Shown: in pieces, positions 387 through 42,585 of the stretch
Layout: every line of letters starts with the position of its first letter
Numbering within the stretch: position 1 is the first letter of the stretch
Assembly (NCBI RefSeq): GCF_026626685.1
Contig: NZ_JAPNJX010000001.1
Span: forward strand, 76,752 to 140,751
Direction of reading: 5' to 3'
From: Nannocystis sp. SCPEA4
Lineage (GTDB): Bacteria; Myxococcota_A; Polyangia; Nannocystales; Nannocystaceae
DNA length: 64,000 bases
Position numbers and translations under genes: made by a program
Notes under the pieces: generated by a model
What the model was told of the DNA's origin: nothing
Seen by the model: the letters and a program-made list of their open reading frames with translations, nothing else
Database searches by the model: none

Positions 387-409
387 GCATTCAGGCAGGT
401 GCAAAAAGA

Positions 410-441
410 CAGGGCCGTGAGGACATGTCCTCACGGCCCTG
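410..441 (+). terminator. Perfect 32-bp palindrome cagggccgtgaggaCATGtcctcacggccctg immediately 3' of the acyl-CoA DH gene; probable bidirectional hairpin terminator / REP-like element
   Basis: Reverse complement is identical. Stem 14 bp around a CATG core, followed by ttcattc. Lies between convergent gene ends. Confidence 0.45.
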
Positions 442-577
442 TTCATTCGGGCATACAAGACCCCCCCTGCCGATCGAGCGACGCCCTCGTTCGAAGCGAC
501 CACTCCGCCTCACGACAAGCGGGGCCCGCCACACTCTTCTGGGGCGGCCTCGCGGCGGCGGAGTGGGACGCAGCGAG

Positions 578-1887
578 CAACCGTCAGGCGTGTCAAGGCA
601 TCTTCGTCCACGGCGTGTTGGACCGGACCATGGCGTTGAGGATGACAAGGAGCTTGCGCATGCAGGCCACGATAGCGACCTTGTCGGGTTTCCCGGAGGC
701 CCTCAGGTGCGCGTAGTACTCGGCGAGCTGCGAGTTGTAGGCGTGCCCGACGGCGGCGCGCGTCGTGGCGTACAGAGCCCGACGGATGTCATGCCGGCCG
801 CCTCGGATATGGCGTTCTCCGCGGTGCTTGCCCGAGTCACAGTTGAACGGTGCGACGCCGACAAGGGCGGCGATCGCCGTGCGGCTGAGCTTCCCGAGCT
901 CGGGAAGGCCAGCGAGAAGGGTCATCGAGAGCACACGACCTACGCCTGGAACGCTCTGGAGCAGCTTGTCGGCCTCGCGCCAGATCGGGCTGGCTTTGAT
1001 CGCTTTGCGGAGCTCCTTCTCGATGTCCTTGAGCTCCTGGTCGATCCACGCGACGTGGCGCTCGAGGCTCTGGCGCTCGCGCTTGTACAGTGCCGTTCGC
1101 AGCCGGTTGTTCTCGCTGATCTGGTTCTCTTGCAGCTGCTTGCGCCGACGAACGAGCGAGTCGATCTCCATCGTCTGCTCATCCTTGAGTGGCCGGGGCT
1201 CGGGCTTGAAGACCTCGGCGTACTCGGCGATCACGGCTGCGTCGATCTTGTCCGTCTTGGCGAGTCGGCCCTTGGCCTTGGCGAAGTCGCGGATCTGTCT
1301 CGCGTTCACCACCGCGACGGGGAGCCCAGCCGCGGCCAGCGCCGCTGCCACCGGGATCTCGTAGCCGCCTGTCGGTTCCATCACGATCAGCACCGGATCG
1401 AGCTGCTTCAGCCTGTCGATCAGGGCCGCGATAGCCGCCGGGTCATTGGCAATCTCAAACACCGGGCCTCGCGGTCCGAGGGCCACACAGAGGGTCTCCT
1501 TCGCAAGATCAATGCCGATGTACTGGTTCTTCGGGTCTTCTGGGGTCATGGCGATCCTTGCCGACGAATGTCCCGCGCCTCTCCCGCCGCCCTGCCTTGC
1601 AGGATTCGAGCTCGGTCTGACCGGCTCAGGCAACCGTTCGGGCTCTTGGAGAAGTCAACGCTTGGCGATCCTCGCTCTCTGGCGGGCTTGAGGCTCAGGG
1701 GCCCTACGATCTACCGAGCGCCCGGGAGCGAAGTCGTACCGCTTCTCAAGCCCACAAGCGGTTCGACAGCACACCAGAATTTCACTGGGAGAAAATCAAG
1801 GAGAGCGTCCGGCGATCCCTGCTCCCTGGCGGGCTCATGGCACCGGGGCCCCATCGATCTGCCGGACGCTCGGGGAGTTGATACAAG
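578..1887 (-). mobile_element. IS110-family insertion sequence (~1.31 kb), no obvious terminal IRs or target duplication
   Basis: Boundaries inferred from the uninterrupted repeat copy at 37100-37260. There is a single DEDD-type transposase ORF. The 335-bp non-coding arm is upstream of the transposase and the other arm is 15 bp, which is the typical IS110 asymmetry. Confidence 0.75.
593..1549 (-). CDS. IS110-family transposase (DEDD recombinase)
   Basis: N-terminal YIGIDLAKETLCVAL motif and C-terminal IS116/IS110/IS902 transposase-domain motifs (GVGRVLSMTLLAGLPELG, FNCDSGKHRGERHIRGGR). ATG at 1549. Confidence 0.85.
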   Translation of the reverse strand: MTPEDPKNQYIGIDLAKETLCVALGPRGPVFEIANDPAAIAALIDRLKQLDPVLIVMEPTGGYEIPVAAALAAAGLPVAVVNARQIRDFAKAKGRLAKTDKIDAAVIAEYAEVFKPEPRPLKDEQTMEIDSLVRRRKQLQENQISENNRLRTALYKRERQSLERHVAWIDQELKDIEKELRKAIKASPIWREADKLLQSVPGVGRVLSMTLLAGLPELGKLSRTAIAALVGVAPFNCDSGKHRGERHIRGGRHDIRRALYATTRAAVGHAYNSQLAEYYAHLRASGKPDKVAIVACMRKLLVILNAMVRSNTPWTKMP

Positions 1888-2158
1888 GGGCCCCATGCCT
1901 CACGCGCAGACGCGGGATCAATCTTCGGACATGCCCCATCGCCCTTCCGCGTCGAGCATGTGGCATGGCAGGTCTCGCGTCGCGAGGGACCCGCGCCGCC
2001 GCCGCGAGGCCGCCCCTCCCCGCTCCCCACGGCCCCGCGTCCTCGCGCACGCGATCCTCGACTCTCGCCTTCCCTCGCCGGCCTGGGCGACTCACCCGCA
2101 GAAAGCGACATGACCGCCAGGACATGTCCCGGCGGTCATGCTGTTGCGCCGCTGAACC

Positions 2159-13251: not shown

Positions 13252-14823
13252 ATGACCACCAAGCCCGCTACCACCACGCCCGCCACCCCCGACAGCCAAT
13301 GGCGCCAGGGCAAGCCCGTGGAGGACCCCGAGAAGATGAAGCGCTGGGGCTTCATCACCGCCAAGCCGTCCGAGTACCTCATCCACGTGCGTCGGGGACG
13401 GATCCGTCGCGCCAGCACCGGCCAGGGCGCGAGCTGCTTCAAGTGGCCGTGGGACAGCGTGGCCGTCATCCCGACCACCATCAACCGCCTGCAGTTCACC
13501 GCCGACCAGGTCACGCTCGAGAAGGTCGGCGTGCAGATCACCGGGCTCGCCGTCTACCGGATCGCCGAGCCGGAGCTGACCTTCCGCATGCTCAACTTCT
13601 CCTACAGCGAGCGCGCGCAGGAGAAGCTCGGCGAGATCCTCACCGAGATGTTCGTCGGCGCCACCCGGCGCCTCGTCGCCAACCTGCGCGTCGAGGACGC
13701 CATGACCCGGCGCAAGGAGTCGATCGCGCGCGAGCTGATGGCGGAGCTCGTGCCGATCGTCGAGGGCCGCGGCCGCACCGACGACAGCACCGCCACCGGT
13801 TGGGGCGTGATCATCGACACCGTCGAGATCCAGAACGTGCAGATCCTGTCGGACACCGTGTTCCAGGACATGCAGGCCCGGTTCCGCGCCGAGCTGGCCC
13901 TGCGCGCGCGCATGGCCGAGATGGAGAGCGCCCGCGAGATCGCCACCCTCGAGGCGACCTCGTCGCGCCAGATCGAGGAGGCCAAGATCGCCAGCGAGAC
14001 CGCCACGCGCGAGCTCAAGGCCCAGGCCGAGAGCCGCACCATGCAGATCGAGCTGGCCGAGGCCGCCAAGCGCGACGAGCTCGAGGCGCGCGCCGCCGAG
14101 GAGCAGCGCGTGCGCGACCAGATGCGCCTGTTCGCCGAGCTCAAGGCCTCCACCGAGCTCGCCGAGGAGCGAGCCGCCCGCGAGCAGGCGCGGGCCCTCG
14201 CCGAGCTCAAGGCCGCCACCGAGCTCGCCGAGGAGCGAGGTGCGCGCGAGCAGGCGCGCCTGCTCGGCGAGCTGCGGGCCAAGACCCAGATCGAGCAGGA
14301 GAAGGCCGCCCAGGCCGAGGCCGTGCGGCTGGCCCAGCTCGCGCGCGAGCGCAAGTACGCCGAGGCCGAGCGTCAGCTGCTCGAGGTCAAGCACACCACG
14401 CAGCAGCGCGAGGCCGAGCTCGCCGCCCAGCTGGCGATGAACCGCAGCAAGGCCAGCACCGAGCTCAAGGACCTCGAGAGCGCCGCGGCCGCGCGGCTCA
14501 AGGAGCGCGAGCTGCAGCTCGAGCGGCTCGCCGGCGAGGTCCGGGCCGCCGTGGCCCGGGCCGCTCGCGAGGTCGACAACCTCGTCTCCGACGACCGGAT
14601 CCGCATGGCCCTGGTCGAGACCGGCCTGCCCGCGATCGCCGGCGCGTTCGCGCAGAAGTTCGGCGAGGTCAAGATCACCTCGTTCGGCGAGGGCGCCGAC
14701 CCCTCGGCCATGGTCGCCCGCGGGATCGGCGAGGTCCTCGCGCTCGCCCGCAAGGTCGGCACCGACCTGCTCGCCACGCCGGCCGCGCCTGTCCCGTCGG
14801 ACAGCAGCCAGCCGGGCCAGTGA
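13252..14823 (+). CDS. Flotillin-like SPFH/Band-7 protein with long EA-rich coiled coil
   Basis: SPFH domain motifs, then ~200 aa of AEL/REQ repeats typical of FloT/YqiK. Confidence 0.85.
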   Translation: MTTKPATTTPATPDSQWRQGKPVEDPEKMKRWGFITAKPSEYLIHVRRGRIRRASTGQGASCFKWPWDSVAVIPTTINRLQFTADQVTLEKVGVQITGLAVYRIAEPELTFRMLNFSYSERAQEKLGEILTEMFVGATRRLVANLRVEDAMTRRKESIARELMAELVPIVEGRGRTDDSTATGWGVIIDTVEIQNVQILSDTVFQDMQARFRAELALRARMAEMESAREIATLEATSSRQIEEAKIASETATRELKAQAESRTMQIELAEAAKRDELEARAAEEQRVRDQMRLFAELKASTELAEERAAREQARALAELKAATELAEERGAREQARLLGELRAKTQIEQEKAAQAEAVRLAQLARERKYAEAERQLLEVKHTTQQREAELAAQLAMNRSKASTELKDLESAAAARLKERELQLERLAGEVRAAVARAAREVDNLVSDDRIRMALVETGLPAIAGAFAQKFGEVKITSFGEGADPSAMVARGIGEVLALARKVGTDLLATPAAPVPSDSSQPGQ

Positions 14824-35464: not shown

Positions 35465-36234
35465 TCGACTGGACCTACGACAGCGGCGTCTACGAGCTCA
35501 CCCTCGCCACGCCGCCCTGCAACGAGATCGGCACGGCGATGCTCGCCGATCTGCGCCGCTTCATCGACCAGATCGATCGCGACGCCCACACCCTCATCCT
35601 CCGCAGCGGCCTGCGCCAGGGCTTCTGCGCCGGCGCCGACCTGCGCGAGCTCTACCGCGGCCTGTGCGACGCCCCCGCCGAGCAGCACGGCCCGCAGATC
35701 CGCAAGTTCATCGACGAGATCCACGGCGTCATGGACGACCTCGACATGCTGCCGCTGACCACCGTCGGCGTCGTCCACGGCGTCTGCTTCGGCGGCGGCT
35801 TCGAGCTCGCGCTCACCTGCGACGTCCTGATCGCCGAGAAGTCGGCCCGCTTCTGCTTCCCCGAGCTGCGCCTCGGCATCATCCCCGGCTTCGGCGGGAT
35901 CCCGCGCCTGCGCCGCGACGTCGGCAACGGCCTCATCCGCGACCTCCTGCTCAGCGGCCGCAGCATCAACGCCAAGAAGGCCCAGGCCGCCGGCCTCGTC
36001 AGCCAGGTCGTCGCCGGCGGCGAGGGCATCACCGCCGCGCGCGCCCTCGCGGCCCAGACCGCCAAGTTCGATCCGACGGCGCGCAAGGCCGCCAAGGCCT
36101 TCATCAAGAAGCTCCCGACCGACGAGCTCGTCGCCGAGCGCGAGCTGTTCGTCCGCCTGGCCCAGGGACCCGCGCTGCTGGCCGCCCTCAAGCGCTTCGT
36201 CGAATCCACCGACCTGCGGCCCTACCTGCCATGA
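35461..36234 (+). CDS. Enoyl-CoA hydratase/isomerase (crotonase fold)
   Basis: Crotonase motifs GFCAGADL and GGGFELALTCD. ATGA overlap with the upstream gene. Confidence 0.85.
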   Translation: MIDWTYDSGVYELTLATPPCNEIGTAMLADLRRFIDQIDRDAHTLILRSGLRQGFCAGADLRELYRGLCDAPAEQHGPQIRKFIDEIHGVMDDLDMLPLTTVGVVHGVCFGGGFELALTCDVLIAEKSARFCFPELRLGIIPGFGGIPRLRRDVGNGLIRDLLLSGRSINAKKAQAAGLVSQVVAGGEGITAARALAAQTAKFDPTARKAAKAFIKKLPTDELVAERELFVRLAQGPALLAALKRFVESTDLRPYLP

Positions 36235-36261
36235 GCCTCCTCGTTCCACACCAGCGCGGAG

Positions 36262-36597
36262 CCTCGAGCTGCGACGCATCTCTTGTTCCGCATTGGCGCG
36301 GGACCTCGAGCTGCGACTCGTCTCTTGTTTCGCGCGGGCGCGGGGCCTCGAGCTGCGACACATCTCTTGGTCCGCATTGGCGCGGGGCCTCGAGCTGCGA
36401 CGCATCTCTTGGTCCGCATTGGCGCGGGGCCTCGAGCTGCGACGCATCTCTTGGTCCGCATTGGCGCGGGGCCTCGAGCTGCGACGCATCTCTTGGTCCG
36501 CATTGGCGCGGAACCTCGAGCTGCGGCTCGTCTCTTGTTCCGCGCCGGTGCGGGGCCTCGAGCTGCGCCTCGTCTCTTGTTCCGCGCTGGCGCGGGG
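36262..36597. repeat. 42-bp minisatellite x8 (cctcgagctgcgacgcatctcttggtccgcattggcgcgggg), non-coding
   Basis: Eight head-to-tail units, the central four identical. The periodic ORFs on both strands are repeat artefacts. Confidence 0.8.
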
Positions 36598-36879
36598 CCA
36601 CGGAGACCCGGGGGGGTCGGCCCGGGCGCGGCGGAGCGGGTCCCTCGCTACGCGAGACCTGCCATGCCAGGTGCTCGCCGGCGATGTTTTGCTCTCCGCT
36701 TTCCGAAGGTTCTCTCGCCGTCTGCGCGCCAGGCATGGGGCCCCTCGCTGCGTCCCACTCCGCCGCGCCCGGGCCGACCCAGAAGATCCTCGAGCGGCCC
36801 CGCTCATCCCCGCGCGGCTGTCCCTTCGGTCCTGCTTCCAGGAACCTGTCTGAACGAGCAGGAGTGACGCTCTCCGTCT

Positions 36880-37560
36880 CTCGACAAGCGGTACCCCTCA
36901 CGCCCTCCGTTCTCTCGTTCGAAGCGACCATCTCCGCCTCACGACAAGCAGGGCCCGCCACGACCTCCTCGCGCGAAGCGACCATCTCCGCCTCACGACA
37001 AGCGGGGCCCGCCACTGCCTCCGCTCTCTCGCTCGAAGCGACCATCTCCGCCTCACGGCAAGCGGGGCCCGCCACGGCCTCCGCTCTCTCGCGCGAAGCG
37101 GTCATCTCCGCCTCACGACAAGCGGGGCCCACCACAATCTTCTGGGGCGGCCTCGCGGCGGCGGAGTGGGACGCAGCGAGGGGCCCCATGCCTCACGCGC
37201 AGACGCGGGATCAATCCTCGGACATGCCCCATCGCCCTTCCGCGTCGAGCATGTGGCATGGCAGGTCTCGCGTCGCGAGGGACCCGCTCCGCCGCCGCGA
37301 GGCCGCCCCTCCCCGCTCCCCACGGCCCCGCGTCTCCGCACACGCGATTCCCGATGCCTCTCGCCTGAGCCGCTCCCCACGGCCCCGCGTCCCCGCGCAC
37401 GCGATCCGAGACGACTCTCGCCTGAGCCGCTCCTCACGGCCCCGCGTCCCCGCGCACGTGCTCTTCGACGCGTCTCGCCCGAGCCGCCCGAGCAGCCCCG
37501 CGTCCGAGCACGCCTGATTCCCGTCCCGACAGCAGAAGCCCGCAGAACATTGAGAGCAAA
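36880..37560. repeat. Dispersed composite repeat, copy B: ~60-bp unit x4.5 (36885-37140), shared core (37100-37330), second ~58-bp unit x3 (37330-37500)
   Basis: ~95% identity to 505-577 plus 1888-2050. Both tandem blocks are collapsed to one unit in copy A. Contains the GGACATGCCCCAT motif. Confidence 0.75.
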
Positions 37561-37564
37561 TCCG

Positions 37565-37798
37565 ATGAGCGACACTCTCGACACACTCATCCGTCTCGCC
37601 GCCAAGCGCTTCGGCGCCGATCCGGCCAAGCTCCGCGCCGAGGACGACCTGTTCGAGCGCCTGGGCATCGACAGTTTTCAGGCCGTCGAGCTCATCTCGG
37701 ACGTCGAGGACGAGTTCGACGTCGAGCTGCCCGACTACGAGCTTCAGGGGATCAAGACCTTCGCTGCTCTGGCGCAGAAGATCGACGCGAGGCGCTAG
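37565..37798 (+). CDS. Acyl carrier protein
   Basis: 77 aa; LGIDSFQAVEL phosphopantetheine-attachment motif. Confidence 0.85.
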   Translation: MSDTLDTLIRLAAKRFGADPAKLRAEDDLFERLGIDSFQAVELISDVEDEFDVELPDYELQGIKTFAALAQKIDARR

Positions 37799-41568: not shown

Positions 41569-42585
41569 ATGACTCGTGGGATCTGCCTTCTGCTCATCGG
41601 TTCGGTGGTGGCCTGTGATGTCGTCGAGAACGACGACGGAACAGCGATTACGGTACGCAACGACGAAGACAACGGCATCGCGTTGAATACCGCGCAGCTC
41701 AACGGCTGGAACCTCAACGGTATGCGCATGAACGGCACCGCCCTCAACGGCATGCGCATGAACGGCTGGAACCTCAACGGGTGGAACCTCAACGGCATCA
41801 GCCTGGTCGGCAGCAGTTTCTCTGCCACCCACGACGTCGACGGCACGCCCGTGCCCGTCAGCGGCGACGACCTGATCGGTTCGGTGCTCACGCTCGAGGG
41901 CGGCGGCACCACCTTCGTCCTGCGCTTCGACGACATCTATCTCGACCCGGCCGACCCGAACGGCGACGTGTGGTTCTACGACATCGCCGTCCAGGACAAC
42001 GAGACCAGCCTGTGGTCGAGCCTCTGCAACGACCACAACGGGCAGCCGACCCAGGCGATCGCCATCGCCAACTGGTGGAACCCCACCACCGGCGCGCGGG
42101 TCGACGATCCCACGGCGGTGACGTTCGCCTGCCGCGACGCCGTGCTGGCCAAGTGTGTCGAGTGGGGCTACCGCCCGTGGGCCACCGTCGGCGGCGTCGG
42201 GCTCGCCGATCACCACCAGACGTGCACGCGGCTGGCCCGTGCCGACTACTGCGGCGACGGCACCCCGCACACCTTCACCGGCACGCCGATCGACGTGTTC
42301 GACGCGCTCAGCCCGGCGATCCAGAGCCCGGCCACGCTCGAGCGGCAGAACTGGGGCATCGAGGCCGAGTGGGGCCCGAACGGCGCTGTGTGCATCGGCG
42401 ACCAGCTGCGCCTCAAGATGTACGACGACAACGGCGTGCCCTACGACTTCCCGGGCTGCTTCGACGCCCTCGACGACATCAGCGGCTGCGGCGACTTCGA
42501 CAGCAGCCGCGGTGCCCTCCTCGCCGACCGCTACTGCGACGTGTGGGAGAGCGACCCGGGCGCCTGCGCGGCCGCCACGTACTAG
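41569..42585 (+). CDS. Lipoprotein with pentapeptide repeats (NLNGW/RMNGT x7) and Cys-containing C-terminal domain
   Basis: Lipobox IGSVVAC, five-residue tandem repeats, and an AGGAG RBS. Confidence 0.6.
   Translation: MTRGICLLLIGSVVACDVVENDDGTAITVRNDEDNGIALNTAQLNGWNLNGMRMNGTALNGMRMNGWNLNGWNLNGISLVGSSFSATHDVDGTPVPVSGDDLIGSVLTLEGGGTTFVLRFDDIYLDPADPNGDVWFYDIAVQDNETSLWSSLCNDHNGQPTQAIAIANWWNPTTGARVDDPTAVTFACRDAVLAKCVEWGYRPWATVGGVGLADHHQTCTRLARADYCGDGTPHTFTGTPIDVFDALSPAIQSPATLERQNWGIEAEWGPNGAVCIGDQLRLKMYDDNGVPYDFPGCFDALDDISGCGDFDSSRGALLADRYCDVWESDPGACAAATY

Follow-up and report, generated by a model that had tools for sequence, protein, structure and literature searches.

The stretch analysed here, hereafter the window, comprises 64,000 nucleotides (nt) of the genome of Nannocystis sp. 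SCPEA4 (assembly GCF_026626685.1, contig NZ_JAPNJX010000001.1, positions 76,752 to 140,751 of the forward strand), and all coordinates below refer to it. Near its start, an insertion sequence (IS) of the IS110 group interrupts one copy of a hairpin-forming repeat, and the left end of this element encodes a predicted bridge RNA in which two tandem target-binding-loop (TBL) modules precede one donor-binding loop (DBL). The two sides of the target are named left target (LT) and right target (RT), those of the donor left donor (LD) and right donor (RD), and the RNA guides facing them LTG, RTG, LDG and RDG.

Insertion junctions and the target repeat

The element, its junctions and the repeat copies of the window are the following.

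578..1887, minus strand: IS110-group insertion sequence, 1310 bp including one CT core (from the junction alignment to the intact repeat, with ends conserved in relatives)
576..577, minus strand: CT core of the right-end junction (AG on the plus strand), 3' of LD ACGGTTG at 578-584 (direct read)
1886..1887, minus strand: CT core of the left-end junction, followed by RD TGTATC at 1885-1880 (direct read)
486..577, plus strand: left part of interrupted repeat copy C, with one flanking unit and the 5' core-hairpin arm (541-577)
1888..2076, plus strand: right part of copy C, with the remaining core to about 2014 and one 57-bp-type unit (repeat family D4, 96%)
37144..37310, plus strand: uninterrupted core copy B, a long imperfect hairpin (DNA fold -68.5 kcal/mol, z -7.2) with the intact site ATGGGGCCC-CT-CGCT at 37175-37189 on the minus strand
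36617..36786, minus strand: uninterrupted core copy A, inverted relative to B (fold z -6.1), with an exact site at 36735-36749 on the plus strand
36254..37505, no strand: tandem arrays framing cores A and B, namely 42 bp x8.2 (36254-36599), 60 bp x4.5 (36871-37135) and 57 bp x3.4 (37313-37505), from Tandem Repeats Finder

The junctions were read directly from the sequence: GGAGTGGGACGCAGCGAG passes into CAACCGTC at 577/578 and GATACAAG into GGGCCCCATGCC at 1887/1888. The repeat half that ends in GGAGTGGGACGCAGCGAG at 577 restarts as GGGCCCCATGCCTCACGCGCAG at 1888, and both are contiguous at 37160-37195. When the flanks 486-577 and 1888-2076 were joined and locally aligned to 37000-37420, 262 of the 279 columns against 37087-37366 were identical (93.9%), with four gap columns and none of them at the junction, and the longest exact match spanning the junction reached 79 nt (43 nt before it and 36 nt after it), which is far beyond chance. 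This local alignment of the joined flanks was chosen over a global MAFFT alignment of 391-2158 with the intact copy, which misplaced the left half. The initial annotation of the stretch, made from the letters alone, had described a repeat split by a 1.31-kb insert between 577 and 1888, with a contiguous copy at about 37.1 kb, and had called for the flanks to be aligned with that copy; the alignment bears out the split, and the boundaries and insert size are right within an ambiguity of 2 bp (AG at 576-577 and 1886-1887). It had also presented the two copies as an empty-site and filled-site pair. The intact repeat copy is real, but the one at 37.1 kb is paralogous and does not represent an empty allele of the same locus.

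The dinucleotide AG (CT on the transposase strand) stands at both junctions and only once in the intact copy, so that the insert consists of 1308 bp plus one core copy, i.e., 1310 bp. Seen from the transposase strand, the two junctions are ATGGGGCCC-CT-TGTATCAAC (LT-core-RD) and GACGGTTG-CT-CGCTGCG (LD-core-RT), with the same CT core that is typical of IS621. The annotated absence of a target-site duplication thus holds in the IS110 sense, but the CT core dinucleotide does flank both ends. The element ends, CTTGTATCA... and ...GACGGTTGCT, are kept in relatives and match in inverted orientation at only 6/40 positions, meaning that terminal inverted repeats are absent, as had been annotated. One could also imagine that the filled and intact copies arose by duplication or recombination between repeat copies, for example with the repeat halves carried together with the IS in a larger mobile unit; indeed, the flanks are paralogous (94% identical) and not allelic, and the repeat is multi-copy and array-flanked. 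We consider this origin extremely improbable, since the ends are conserved in relatives whose flanks are unrelated, including one element located in a lipoprotein open reading frame (ORF), since the junction is exact at the CT core, as the IS110 mechanism predicts, and since the repeat halves were not found beside relatives. The insertion in itself is ordinary IS110 biology, carried out by a new member of the IS110 group.

The target is a core of ~165 nt present in three copies in the window, all of them intergenic. Beyond the annotated pair, the third copy (A) is inverted and carries the exact 15-nt site ATGGGGCCCCTCGCT at 36735-36749; the 21-bp basal stem is not the same in A as in B, and the changes, which affect both arms, preserve the pairing. 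Copy C is flanked by two convergent genes, with a GGACATGTCC hairpin at the end of each. As expected of repetitive extragenic palindromic (REP) sequences or the related bacterial interspersed mosaic elements (BIME), the repeat is multi-copy, intergenic and hairpin-forming; it lacks a 20-40-nt unit homologous to known REP families, showing instead a ~165-nt core, arrays and no Rfam family. The core works like a REP target without belonging to any REP family described. A search by nhmmer with the core returned the window only, plus one weak match in a metagenomic relative (L052).

The initial annotation had assigned the target to the same family as the CATG elements of the window, which is not supported: the target is a long hairpin of ~165 nt, distinct from the short GGACATGTCC hairpins. 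Seven GGACATGTCC copies are found at 421, 2120, 14942, 16764, 26000, 26867 and 26955, mostly as GC-rich hairpin loops at gene ends (e.g., the terminator-like hairpin at 409-442). Sister lineages of the element (L001, L002, L045 and L071) insert exactly into ACATGTC-CT-GA of GGACATGTCC hairpins, and two others (L102 and L103) into an ACATGCC variant of this type of hairpin site. Note that the whole 1.3-kb intergenic region 36234-37565 is made of repeats, in the order 42-bp x8 array, inverted core A, 60-bp x4.5 array, core B and 57-bp x3.4 array; the units of the arrays have a GCGGGGCC motif in common, and similar array-flanked repeats surround the IS in the metagenomic relatives L049-L058. In-frame coding tandem repeats unrelated to the IS also occur at 41670-41812 and 14094-14291, one with 15/30-nt CAACGGC... 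units and the other with three 66-nt units.

Recombinase and left-end RNA

Within the element, the coding and non-coding features are the following.

593..1549, minus strand: recombinase (transposase) coding sequence, 318 aa, with DEDD RuvC-like and Tnp domains (ORF list, Pfam, IS621 match)
1550..1885, minus strand: left-end non-coding region encoding the predicted bridge RNA (alignment to relatives; module and guide analysis)
1803..1871, minus strand: TBL module m1 (5'-most), LTG AUGGGGCCCCg at 1854-1844 and RTG AGGGAG at 1827-1822 (covariance model 82.3 bits, E 1.4e-21)
1657..1722, minus strand: TBL module m2 (donor-proximal), LTG AGGGCCCCU at 1705-1697 and RTG AGAGAG at 1680-1675 (covariance model 62.2 bits, E 1.1e-15)
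1589..1643, minus strand: donor-binding loop, LDG ACGGUUGCc at 1637-1629 (matching LD+core at 8/9) and candidate RDG UGCAAG at 1601-1596
591..596, minus strand: TTGACA, candidate -35 box in the right end, overlapping the stop codon (in-silico circle junction; TTGAC conserved in relatives)
1878..1883, minus strand: TATCAA, candidate -10 box in the left end (circle junction; analogy with IS621, PMC11208160)

The only long ORF fitting the element ends runs from 1549 to 593 on the minus strand and starts with MTPEDPKNQYIGIDLAK. Its product matches PF01548 (DEDD_Tnp_IS110, 1.3e-28) and PF02371 (Transposase_20, 5.3e-15) in Pfam, and it is matched over residues 6-314 by the IS621 transposase (8WT6) at E 1.9e-35; its alignment with two recombinases of known structure, those of IS621 and ISCro4, extends from end to end (E 2e-35). 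The motifs IGID, E(P/A)TG, KTDxxDA and SG (the serine) are conserved and aligned between the recombinase and IS621, and the combination of a DEDD domain with a C-terminal Tnp domain bearing the conserved serine is that of the IS110 family. In addition, the non-coding ends measure 336 nt upstream of the ATG and 15 nt after the stop, a layout that corresponds to the IS110 group and not to IS1111 (PMC11208160); the lack of terminal inverted repeats and of any target duplication beyond the shared CT also agrees with the IS110 group. The annotated family is thereby confirmed. An identical protein (100%) is recorded as an IS110 family transposase of Nannocystis sp. SCPEA4, on one contig.

Joining the right end to the left end in silico brings together TTGACA-17 nt-TATCAA across the core, and the TTGAC box is kept at the same distance from CT in ~20 relatives. 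By analogy with IS621, this candidate promoter would be whole only in the excised circle; a generic promoter scan is blind to a promoter split across the junction.

The left end, 338 nt when counted with the core, carries one donor-binding loop and two TBL modules. In the guide geometry described for IS621, the LTG repeats the top strand of LT+core over 9 nt, the RTG corresponds to the reverse complement of core+RT (at least 4 nt), and the donor loop follows the same logic (Durrant et al. 2024, PMC11208160). The modules emerged from an alignment of the left end with those of the closest relatives, L001 (a metagenome-assembled genome of Polyangiaceae) and L002 (Nannocystis pusilla), which have the same ends as the window element and different flanks (ACATGTC-CT-GA, in GGACATGTCC hairpins). 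Both modules share one design: a 10-bp outer stem, A, GAUC, an 11-nt 5' loop, a conserved segment with AGCCCGC, a 10-nt 3' loop, GAUC and a closing stem. A covariance model trained on 21 modules of relatives, from which the window sequences were excluded, gave in the 64-kb window two strong matches only, 1872-1802 and 1724-1655, the next best having an E-value of 0.03. In an RNAalifold consensus of 15 modules, the 14-bp stem showed compensatory changes at 9/14 pairs, and for the donor-proximal modules alone (11 modules, 11 lineages) such changes affected 10/14 pairs.

The donor loop is laid out as GCCC-GAACGGUUGCc-hairpin-AAUCCUGCAAGGCA-GGGC. Its LDG matches LD+core (ACGGTTGCT) at 8/9, and the same register is found in 10 relatives at 6-8/9 (8/9 in seven of them), although five LD sequences (ACGGTTG, ACAGTCG, ACACCTG, ACAGTTG and ACCGTAG) occur among these; the donor guide thus covaries with the donor. 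The inner hairpin of the loop also changes in a compensatory manner, from CGGU/ACCG to CGGC/GCCG in L001. The donor loop can pair with LD+core and core+RD as expected of a bridge RNA, the latter half being weakly tested since the RDG match, CAAG to CTTG, is an invariant 4 nt. Two other readings of m2, as a donor-binding loop or as a guide for the LT-RD excision junction, were ruled out: LT is matched on the 5' side of m2 and RT on its 3' side, not LD or RD, and the donor sequence is matched by the third, conserved loop. The RNA departs from the published design, which has exactly one TBL and one DBL, in its two TBL modules.

Some further observations concern this region. A U-rich tract, UCCUUGAUUUUCU, lies at 1790-1802 (minus strand) directly 3' of the closing stem of m1; a U-rich tract after the 5' TBL also occurs in L001 (UUUUUU), L102, L104 and L109, and not in L046, L047 or L068. 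As a terminator, it could yield a short m1 or TBL-only RNA, a hint to which we give low weight. The linker between m1 and m2 (1723-1802, minus strand) carries motifs conserved across relatives (ACUGAAA..., GUAAGCG.GC.AACUG and UACGAC), which also stand upstream of the TBL in the single-TBL P0023 clade. Finally, the Rfam family sX15, a small RNA of Xanthomonadaceae, matches 1571-1732 on the plus strand below threshold (23.8 bits, where the gathering score is 55; E 0.069); this match spans m2 and the DBL on the strand opposite the predicted bridge RNA, and sX15 may be derived from an IS110 left end.

Guide-target pairing and the number of working loops

The window site reads GGGGCCC-CT-CGCT. In strict register, the m2 LTG (AGGGCCC-CU) matches it at 8/9 positions including CU, and its RTG (AGAGAG) at 5/6. 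The m1 LTG (UGGGGCC-CC) matches 6/9 in strict register and 8/9 when slipped by 1 nt, in which case it contains AUGGGGCCCC, 10 contiguous nt, and its RTG (AGGGAG) matches 5/6. Both modules have sides that can pair with the bottom strand of LT+core and the top strand of core+RT, as in known bridge RNAs (8/9 and 5/6 for m2; 8/9 slipped and 5/6 for m1). The 13-mer predicted from m2, searched in the window with at most two mismatches, is found in the two intact cores only; the strict m1-predicted site, searched in the window, gave no perfect site in the repeat and did not recover the intact cores. A CC core for m1 was ruled out, as it predicts a junction 1 nt shorter than the one observed. The hexamer AGCGAG at 1676-1671 complements CT-CGCT at 6/6 positions; since it is out of register and recurs as the scaffold GAGCGAGGAUC in unrelated modules (m1 of L047), it was not counted as the RTG.

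In relatives, it is usually the 5' module that matches its own site almost perfectly:

L042: LTG 9/9, RTG 6/6
L046: LTG 9/9, RTG 5/6
L047: LTG 8/9, RTG 6/6
L108: LTG 9/9, RTG 5/6
L001: LTG 9/9, RTG 4/6 (core and RT1-2 matched)

In relatives with a single TBL, RTG matches range from 6/6 to 8/8, and matches of 7-8 contiguous nt occur in L009, L012, L003 and L010. All of the 15 modules first examined (15/15) gave their best or tied-best score against the target of their own element. For the eight multi-TBL lineages with different sites, all 40,320 permutations of the targets were scored: the true pairing was the single best for m1 (109 against 77 +/- 5.8) and also for m2 (91 against 71.9 +/- 4.2), giving P = 2.5e-5 for guide-target covariation (exhaustive permutation, family-wide), and without the invariant core it was still best or nearly so. 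Guides and targets change together. From L001 to L102, the target changes from ACATGTC to ACATGCC, and the same U-to-C change is seen in m1 (ACAUGUCCU to ACAUGCCCU) and m2 (CAUGUCC to CUUGCCC), while both RTGs change from UCAG to UGAG; m2 of L108 follows a radically different target (CCAGUCC against ACAGTCC, GCGAG against CT-CGC).

These results support the annotated proposal that the element targets the repeat in a sequence-specific manner, since the guide loops of its bridge RNA match the site and since the P0023 element, a 63%-identical relative, has 10/10 copies at GCGGGTC-CT-CCCAGG in an analogous, array-flanked repeat. A different explanation would be that the insertion is fortuitous or directed by structure only, the recombinase preferring hairpin or cruciform DNA and the complementarity being a coincidence of GC-rich motifs of the GGGGCCCC type. 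All reconstructed targets do lie in strong hairpins (the empty sites of L104, L108 and L002 form long ones, up to ~50 bp), ISPpu10 is reported to need a target hairpin besides RNA pairing (bioRxiv 10.64898/2026.03.19.712850), GC-rich palindromic motifs are common in the window, and loose matches to the 15-mer occur there at chance frequency. However, guides change in step with targets across lineages, including the AT-containing ACATGTC, AACAGTC and TTGCCTA, the RTG matches of 7-8 contiguous nt argue against coincidence, and the exact 15-nt site occurs in the window in the two intact cores only, so that we judge this explanation highly improbable. Moreover, the three-TBL element of L042 (1000-1110) lies inside a predicted lipoprotein ORF (MKQLLLALPLLLPACGEK...), at the non-repeat, gene-disrupting site TGGGTCC-CT-CGCT; this site perfectly matches its m1, which indicates that pairing, and not the repeat as such, defines the site.

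A second site of the IS type, GCGGGTCC-CT-CGCG/T, stands on the opposite arm of each core, at 37265-37285 and 36635-36655 (both plus strand). It fits the guides of L042 and L109 (UGGGUCC-CU with GCGAG) and not those of the window element, and the repeat family seems, from these sequences, to offer two sites to the IS clade. That m1 and m2 are aimed at the two hairpin arms is unsupported, as neither fits site 2 better than site 1.

The number of TBL modules was surveyed with the covariance model over 46 loci. Three modules were found in L042 and L046, and two in ten loci (L001, L002, L045, L047, L068, L102, L104, L108, L110 and L109, the last with a third module cut by the contig end); the protein identity of these two- and three-module relatives is at least 67%. 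Every more distant relative (20 loci), including the P0023 clade, has one. Stem sequences (CCGGCG...) mark the donor-proximal module as the orthologue of the single TBL of relatives, which points to m2 as the ancestral loop, with the 5' module or modules added. The m1 and m1b modules of L042, and those of L109, look like separate recent tandem duplications. In L110, the two modules are discordant: m1 specifies ACATGCC/CT-CAC, m2 is identical to that of L001, and the right end, ACAGTTG-CT, mismatches the element's own LDG, ACGGUUGCc. L110 may be a recombinant element or a chimeric assembly.

An ordinary IS110 element with a single working TBL must be weighed here, the second being a decaying tandem duplicate or a structural spacer that takes no part in target choice and whose likeness to the target was inherited or gene-converted. 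Such an imbalance would agree with the relatives, in which the 5' module is usually near-perfect (8-9/9) and the donor-proximal one weaker (4-7/9 in strict register), with the recurrent and recent nature of duplication (the m1 and m1b stems of L042 are nearly identical, and copies may be short-lived) and with the different sites specified by m1 and m2 of L110. In contrast, the stems of m2 have been maintained by compensatory change, its guides give the best own-target total of all permutations and follow even the L108 target, its orthology to the only TBL of single-TBL relatives makes it ancestral and not a copy, and in the window it is the module in correct register with the site. We thus regard a single working loop as unlikely, although it deserves serious consideration.

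Altogether, we are confident that 578-1887 is an intact, single-copy IS110-group element that entered the hairpin repeat at a CT core under the guidance of a bridge RNA, and that both TBLs are most likely working guides; each of the two modules has retained its fold and follows the insertion site, from which we infer their function. Several points weigh against this interpretation. The match to the window site is imperfect for both modules, with m1 shifted by 1 nt from the register and the two RTGs mismatched at the same RT position. The minimum-free-energy fold of the complete left end does not surpass those of shuffled sequences (z -0.31), the inner hairpin of the TBL modules is inconsistently predicted, and an Rfam search of the whole window gave no family at gathering score. 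The permutation test compares lineages that are related to each other, and what looks like independent tracking by m1 and m2 could be the product of gene conversion between them. In addition, one IS copy is recorded in the SCPEA4 genome, where targeting rests on this one insertion and on the relatives.

The anatomy of the insertion, the protein family, the RNA modules and the covariation of guides with target and donor are shown by the present data, whereas we infer transcription, circle formation and the module used for the window insertion, in a scheme modelled on IS621. The element would be excised as a circle, as IS621 is, and its joined right and left ends would create the sigma-70 promoter TTGACA-17-TATCAA, from which the 338-nt left end would be transcribed. 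The donor-binding loop would pair with the element's own joined ends (ACGGTTG-CT-TG) and a target-binding loop with ATGGGGCCC-CT-CGCT in the repeat, after which the DEDD/Ser recombinase would exchange strands at CT to give LT-CT-IS-CT-RT without duplication. In this scheme, m2 would be the ancestral, donor-linked loop and m1 an added 5' loop, which may act as a separate TBL-only RNA or widen the range of repeat variants recognised.

Relation to known IS110 elements and meaning

The closest parallel is IS621 of Escherichia coli (Durrant et al. 2024, PMC11208160; Hiraizumi et al. 2024, PMC11208158), which shares the DEDD and Ser recombinase, the long left and short right end, the absence of inverted repeats, the CT core, a promoter split across the circle junction (predicted here) and a left-end RNA with internal loops and the same LTG, RTG and LDG geometry, and whose natural targets are also repetitive palindromic elements. 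The differences lie in the RNA and the target: IS621 combines a 5' stem-loop with one TBL and one DBL, whereas the window element has two tandem TBLs (and relatives up to three) before one DBL; pairing at the final position of the core is usually missing from the LDG, and also from many LTGs; the target of the window element is a ~165-nt hairpin repeat instead of a ~35-nt REP; and protein identity is low. ISPpu10 and ISPpu9 of Pseudomonas putida (bioRxiv 10.64898/2026.03.19.712850; 10.1101/2025.01.17.633520) are likewise IS110-family elements with all copies in one conserved intergenic palindromic repeat, and for ISPpu10 the DNA hairpin of the target is a reported second requirement; they differ from the window element in host phylum, repeat and their single TBL. 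The IS1111 group, with its seekRNA, shares the recombinase family and RNA-guided targeting, but has its RNA in a long right end and subterminal inverted repeats of 7-17 bp, whereas the window element has its RNA in the left end and no such repeats.

Extra loops are mechanistically plausible, since TBL and DBL have been published as functional when supplied as separate RNAs and since, in both CazIS110-1 and IS621, an abundant TBL-only RNA supports one of the transfer steps (Sun et al., bioRxiv 10.1101/2025.10.25.684509). In CazIS110-1, where one step of strand transfer is supported in this way, the natural stand-alone RNA outnumbers the full bridge RNA; it is a truncated form of a single-TBL bridge RNA, whereas the window element encodes an additional TBL. 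By analogy, it offers a plausible role for the extra 5'-most TBL and the U-rich tract (1802-1790). What has been published on bridge RNAs, a September 2026 review included, is a single programmable RNA that combines one target loop with one donor loop. Phrase searches of the literature for two, multiple, tandem or second target-binding loops found none, which is absence of evidence only; as far as the searched papers go, a bridge RNA with tandem TBLs appears to be undescribed. In its protein, core, ends, candidate split promoter, guide geometry and preference for palindromic repeats, the window element agrees with the IS110 group as defined by IS621 and ISPpu9/10, and the departure is the number of target loops.

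The insertion mainly provides a clean filled and intact pair for a new, unnamed Nannocystis element, and its value lies in the RNA. We tentatively propose, with slightly less than even confidence, that IS110 elements of one clade in Nannocystaceae possess a bridge RNA that is naturally multi-guide, in which two to three recurrently duplicated and all-functional tandem TBLs feed one DBL, every loop keeping its fold and being retargeted along with the insertion site. The eight lineages with paired sites and guides make this idea directly testable. If true, it would tie in with recent reports of TBL-only RNAs driving a separate transfer pathway, and would provide a ready-made scaffold for multiplexed or split-guide bridge editing. 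Each element would then hold several simultaneous target specificities, e.g., for diverged copies or for two hairpin arms, or, alternatively, the work would be split between a donor-linked TBL and a free TBL-only RNA. Natural sets of two to three co-evolving target loops would show how elements change or broaden their specificity, and TBL duplication would be the route by which bridge recombinases gain new targets while keeping the old one.

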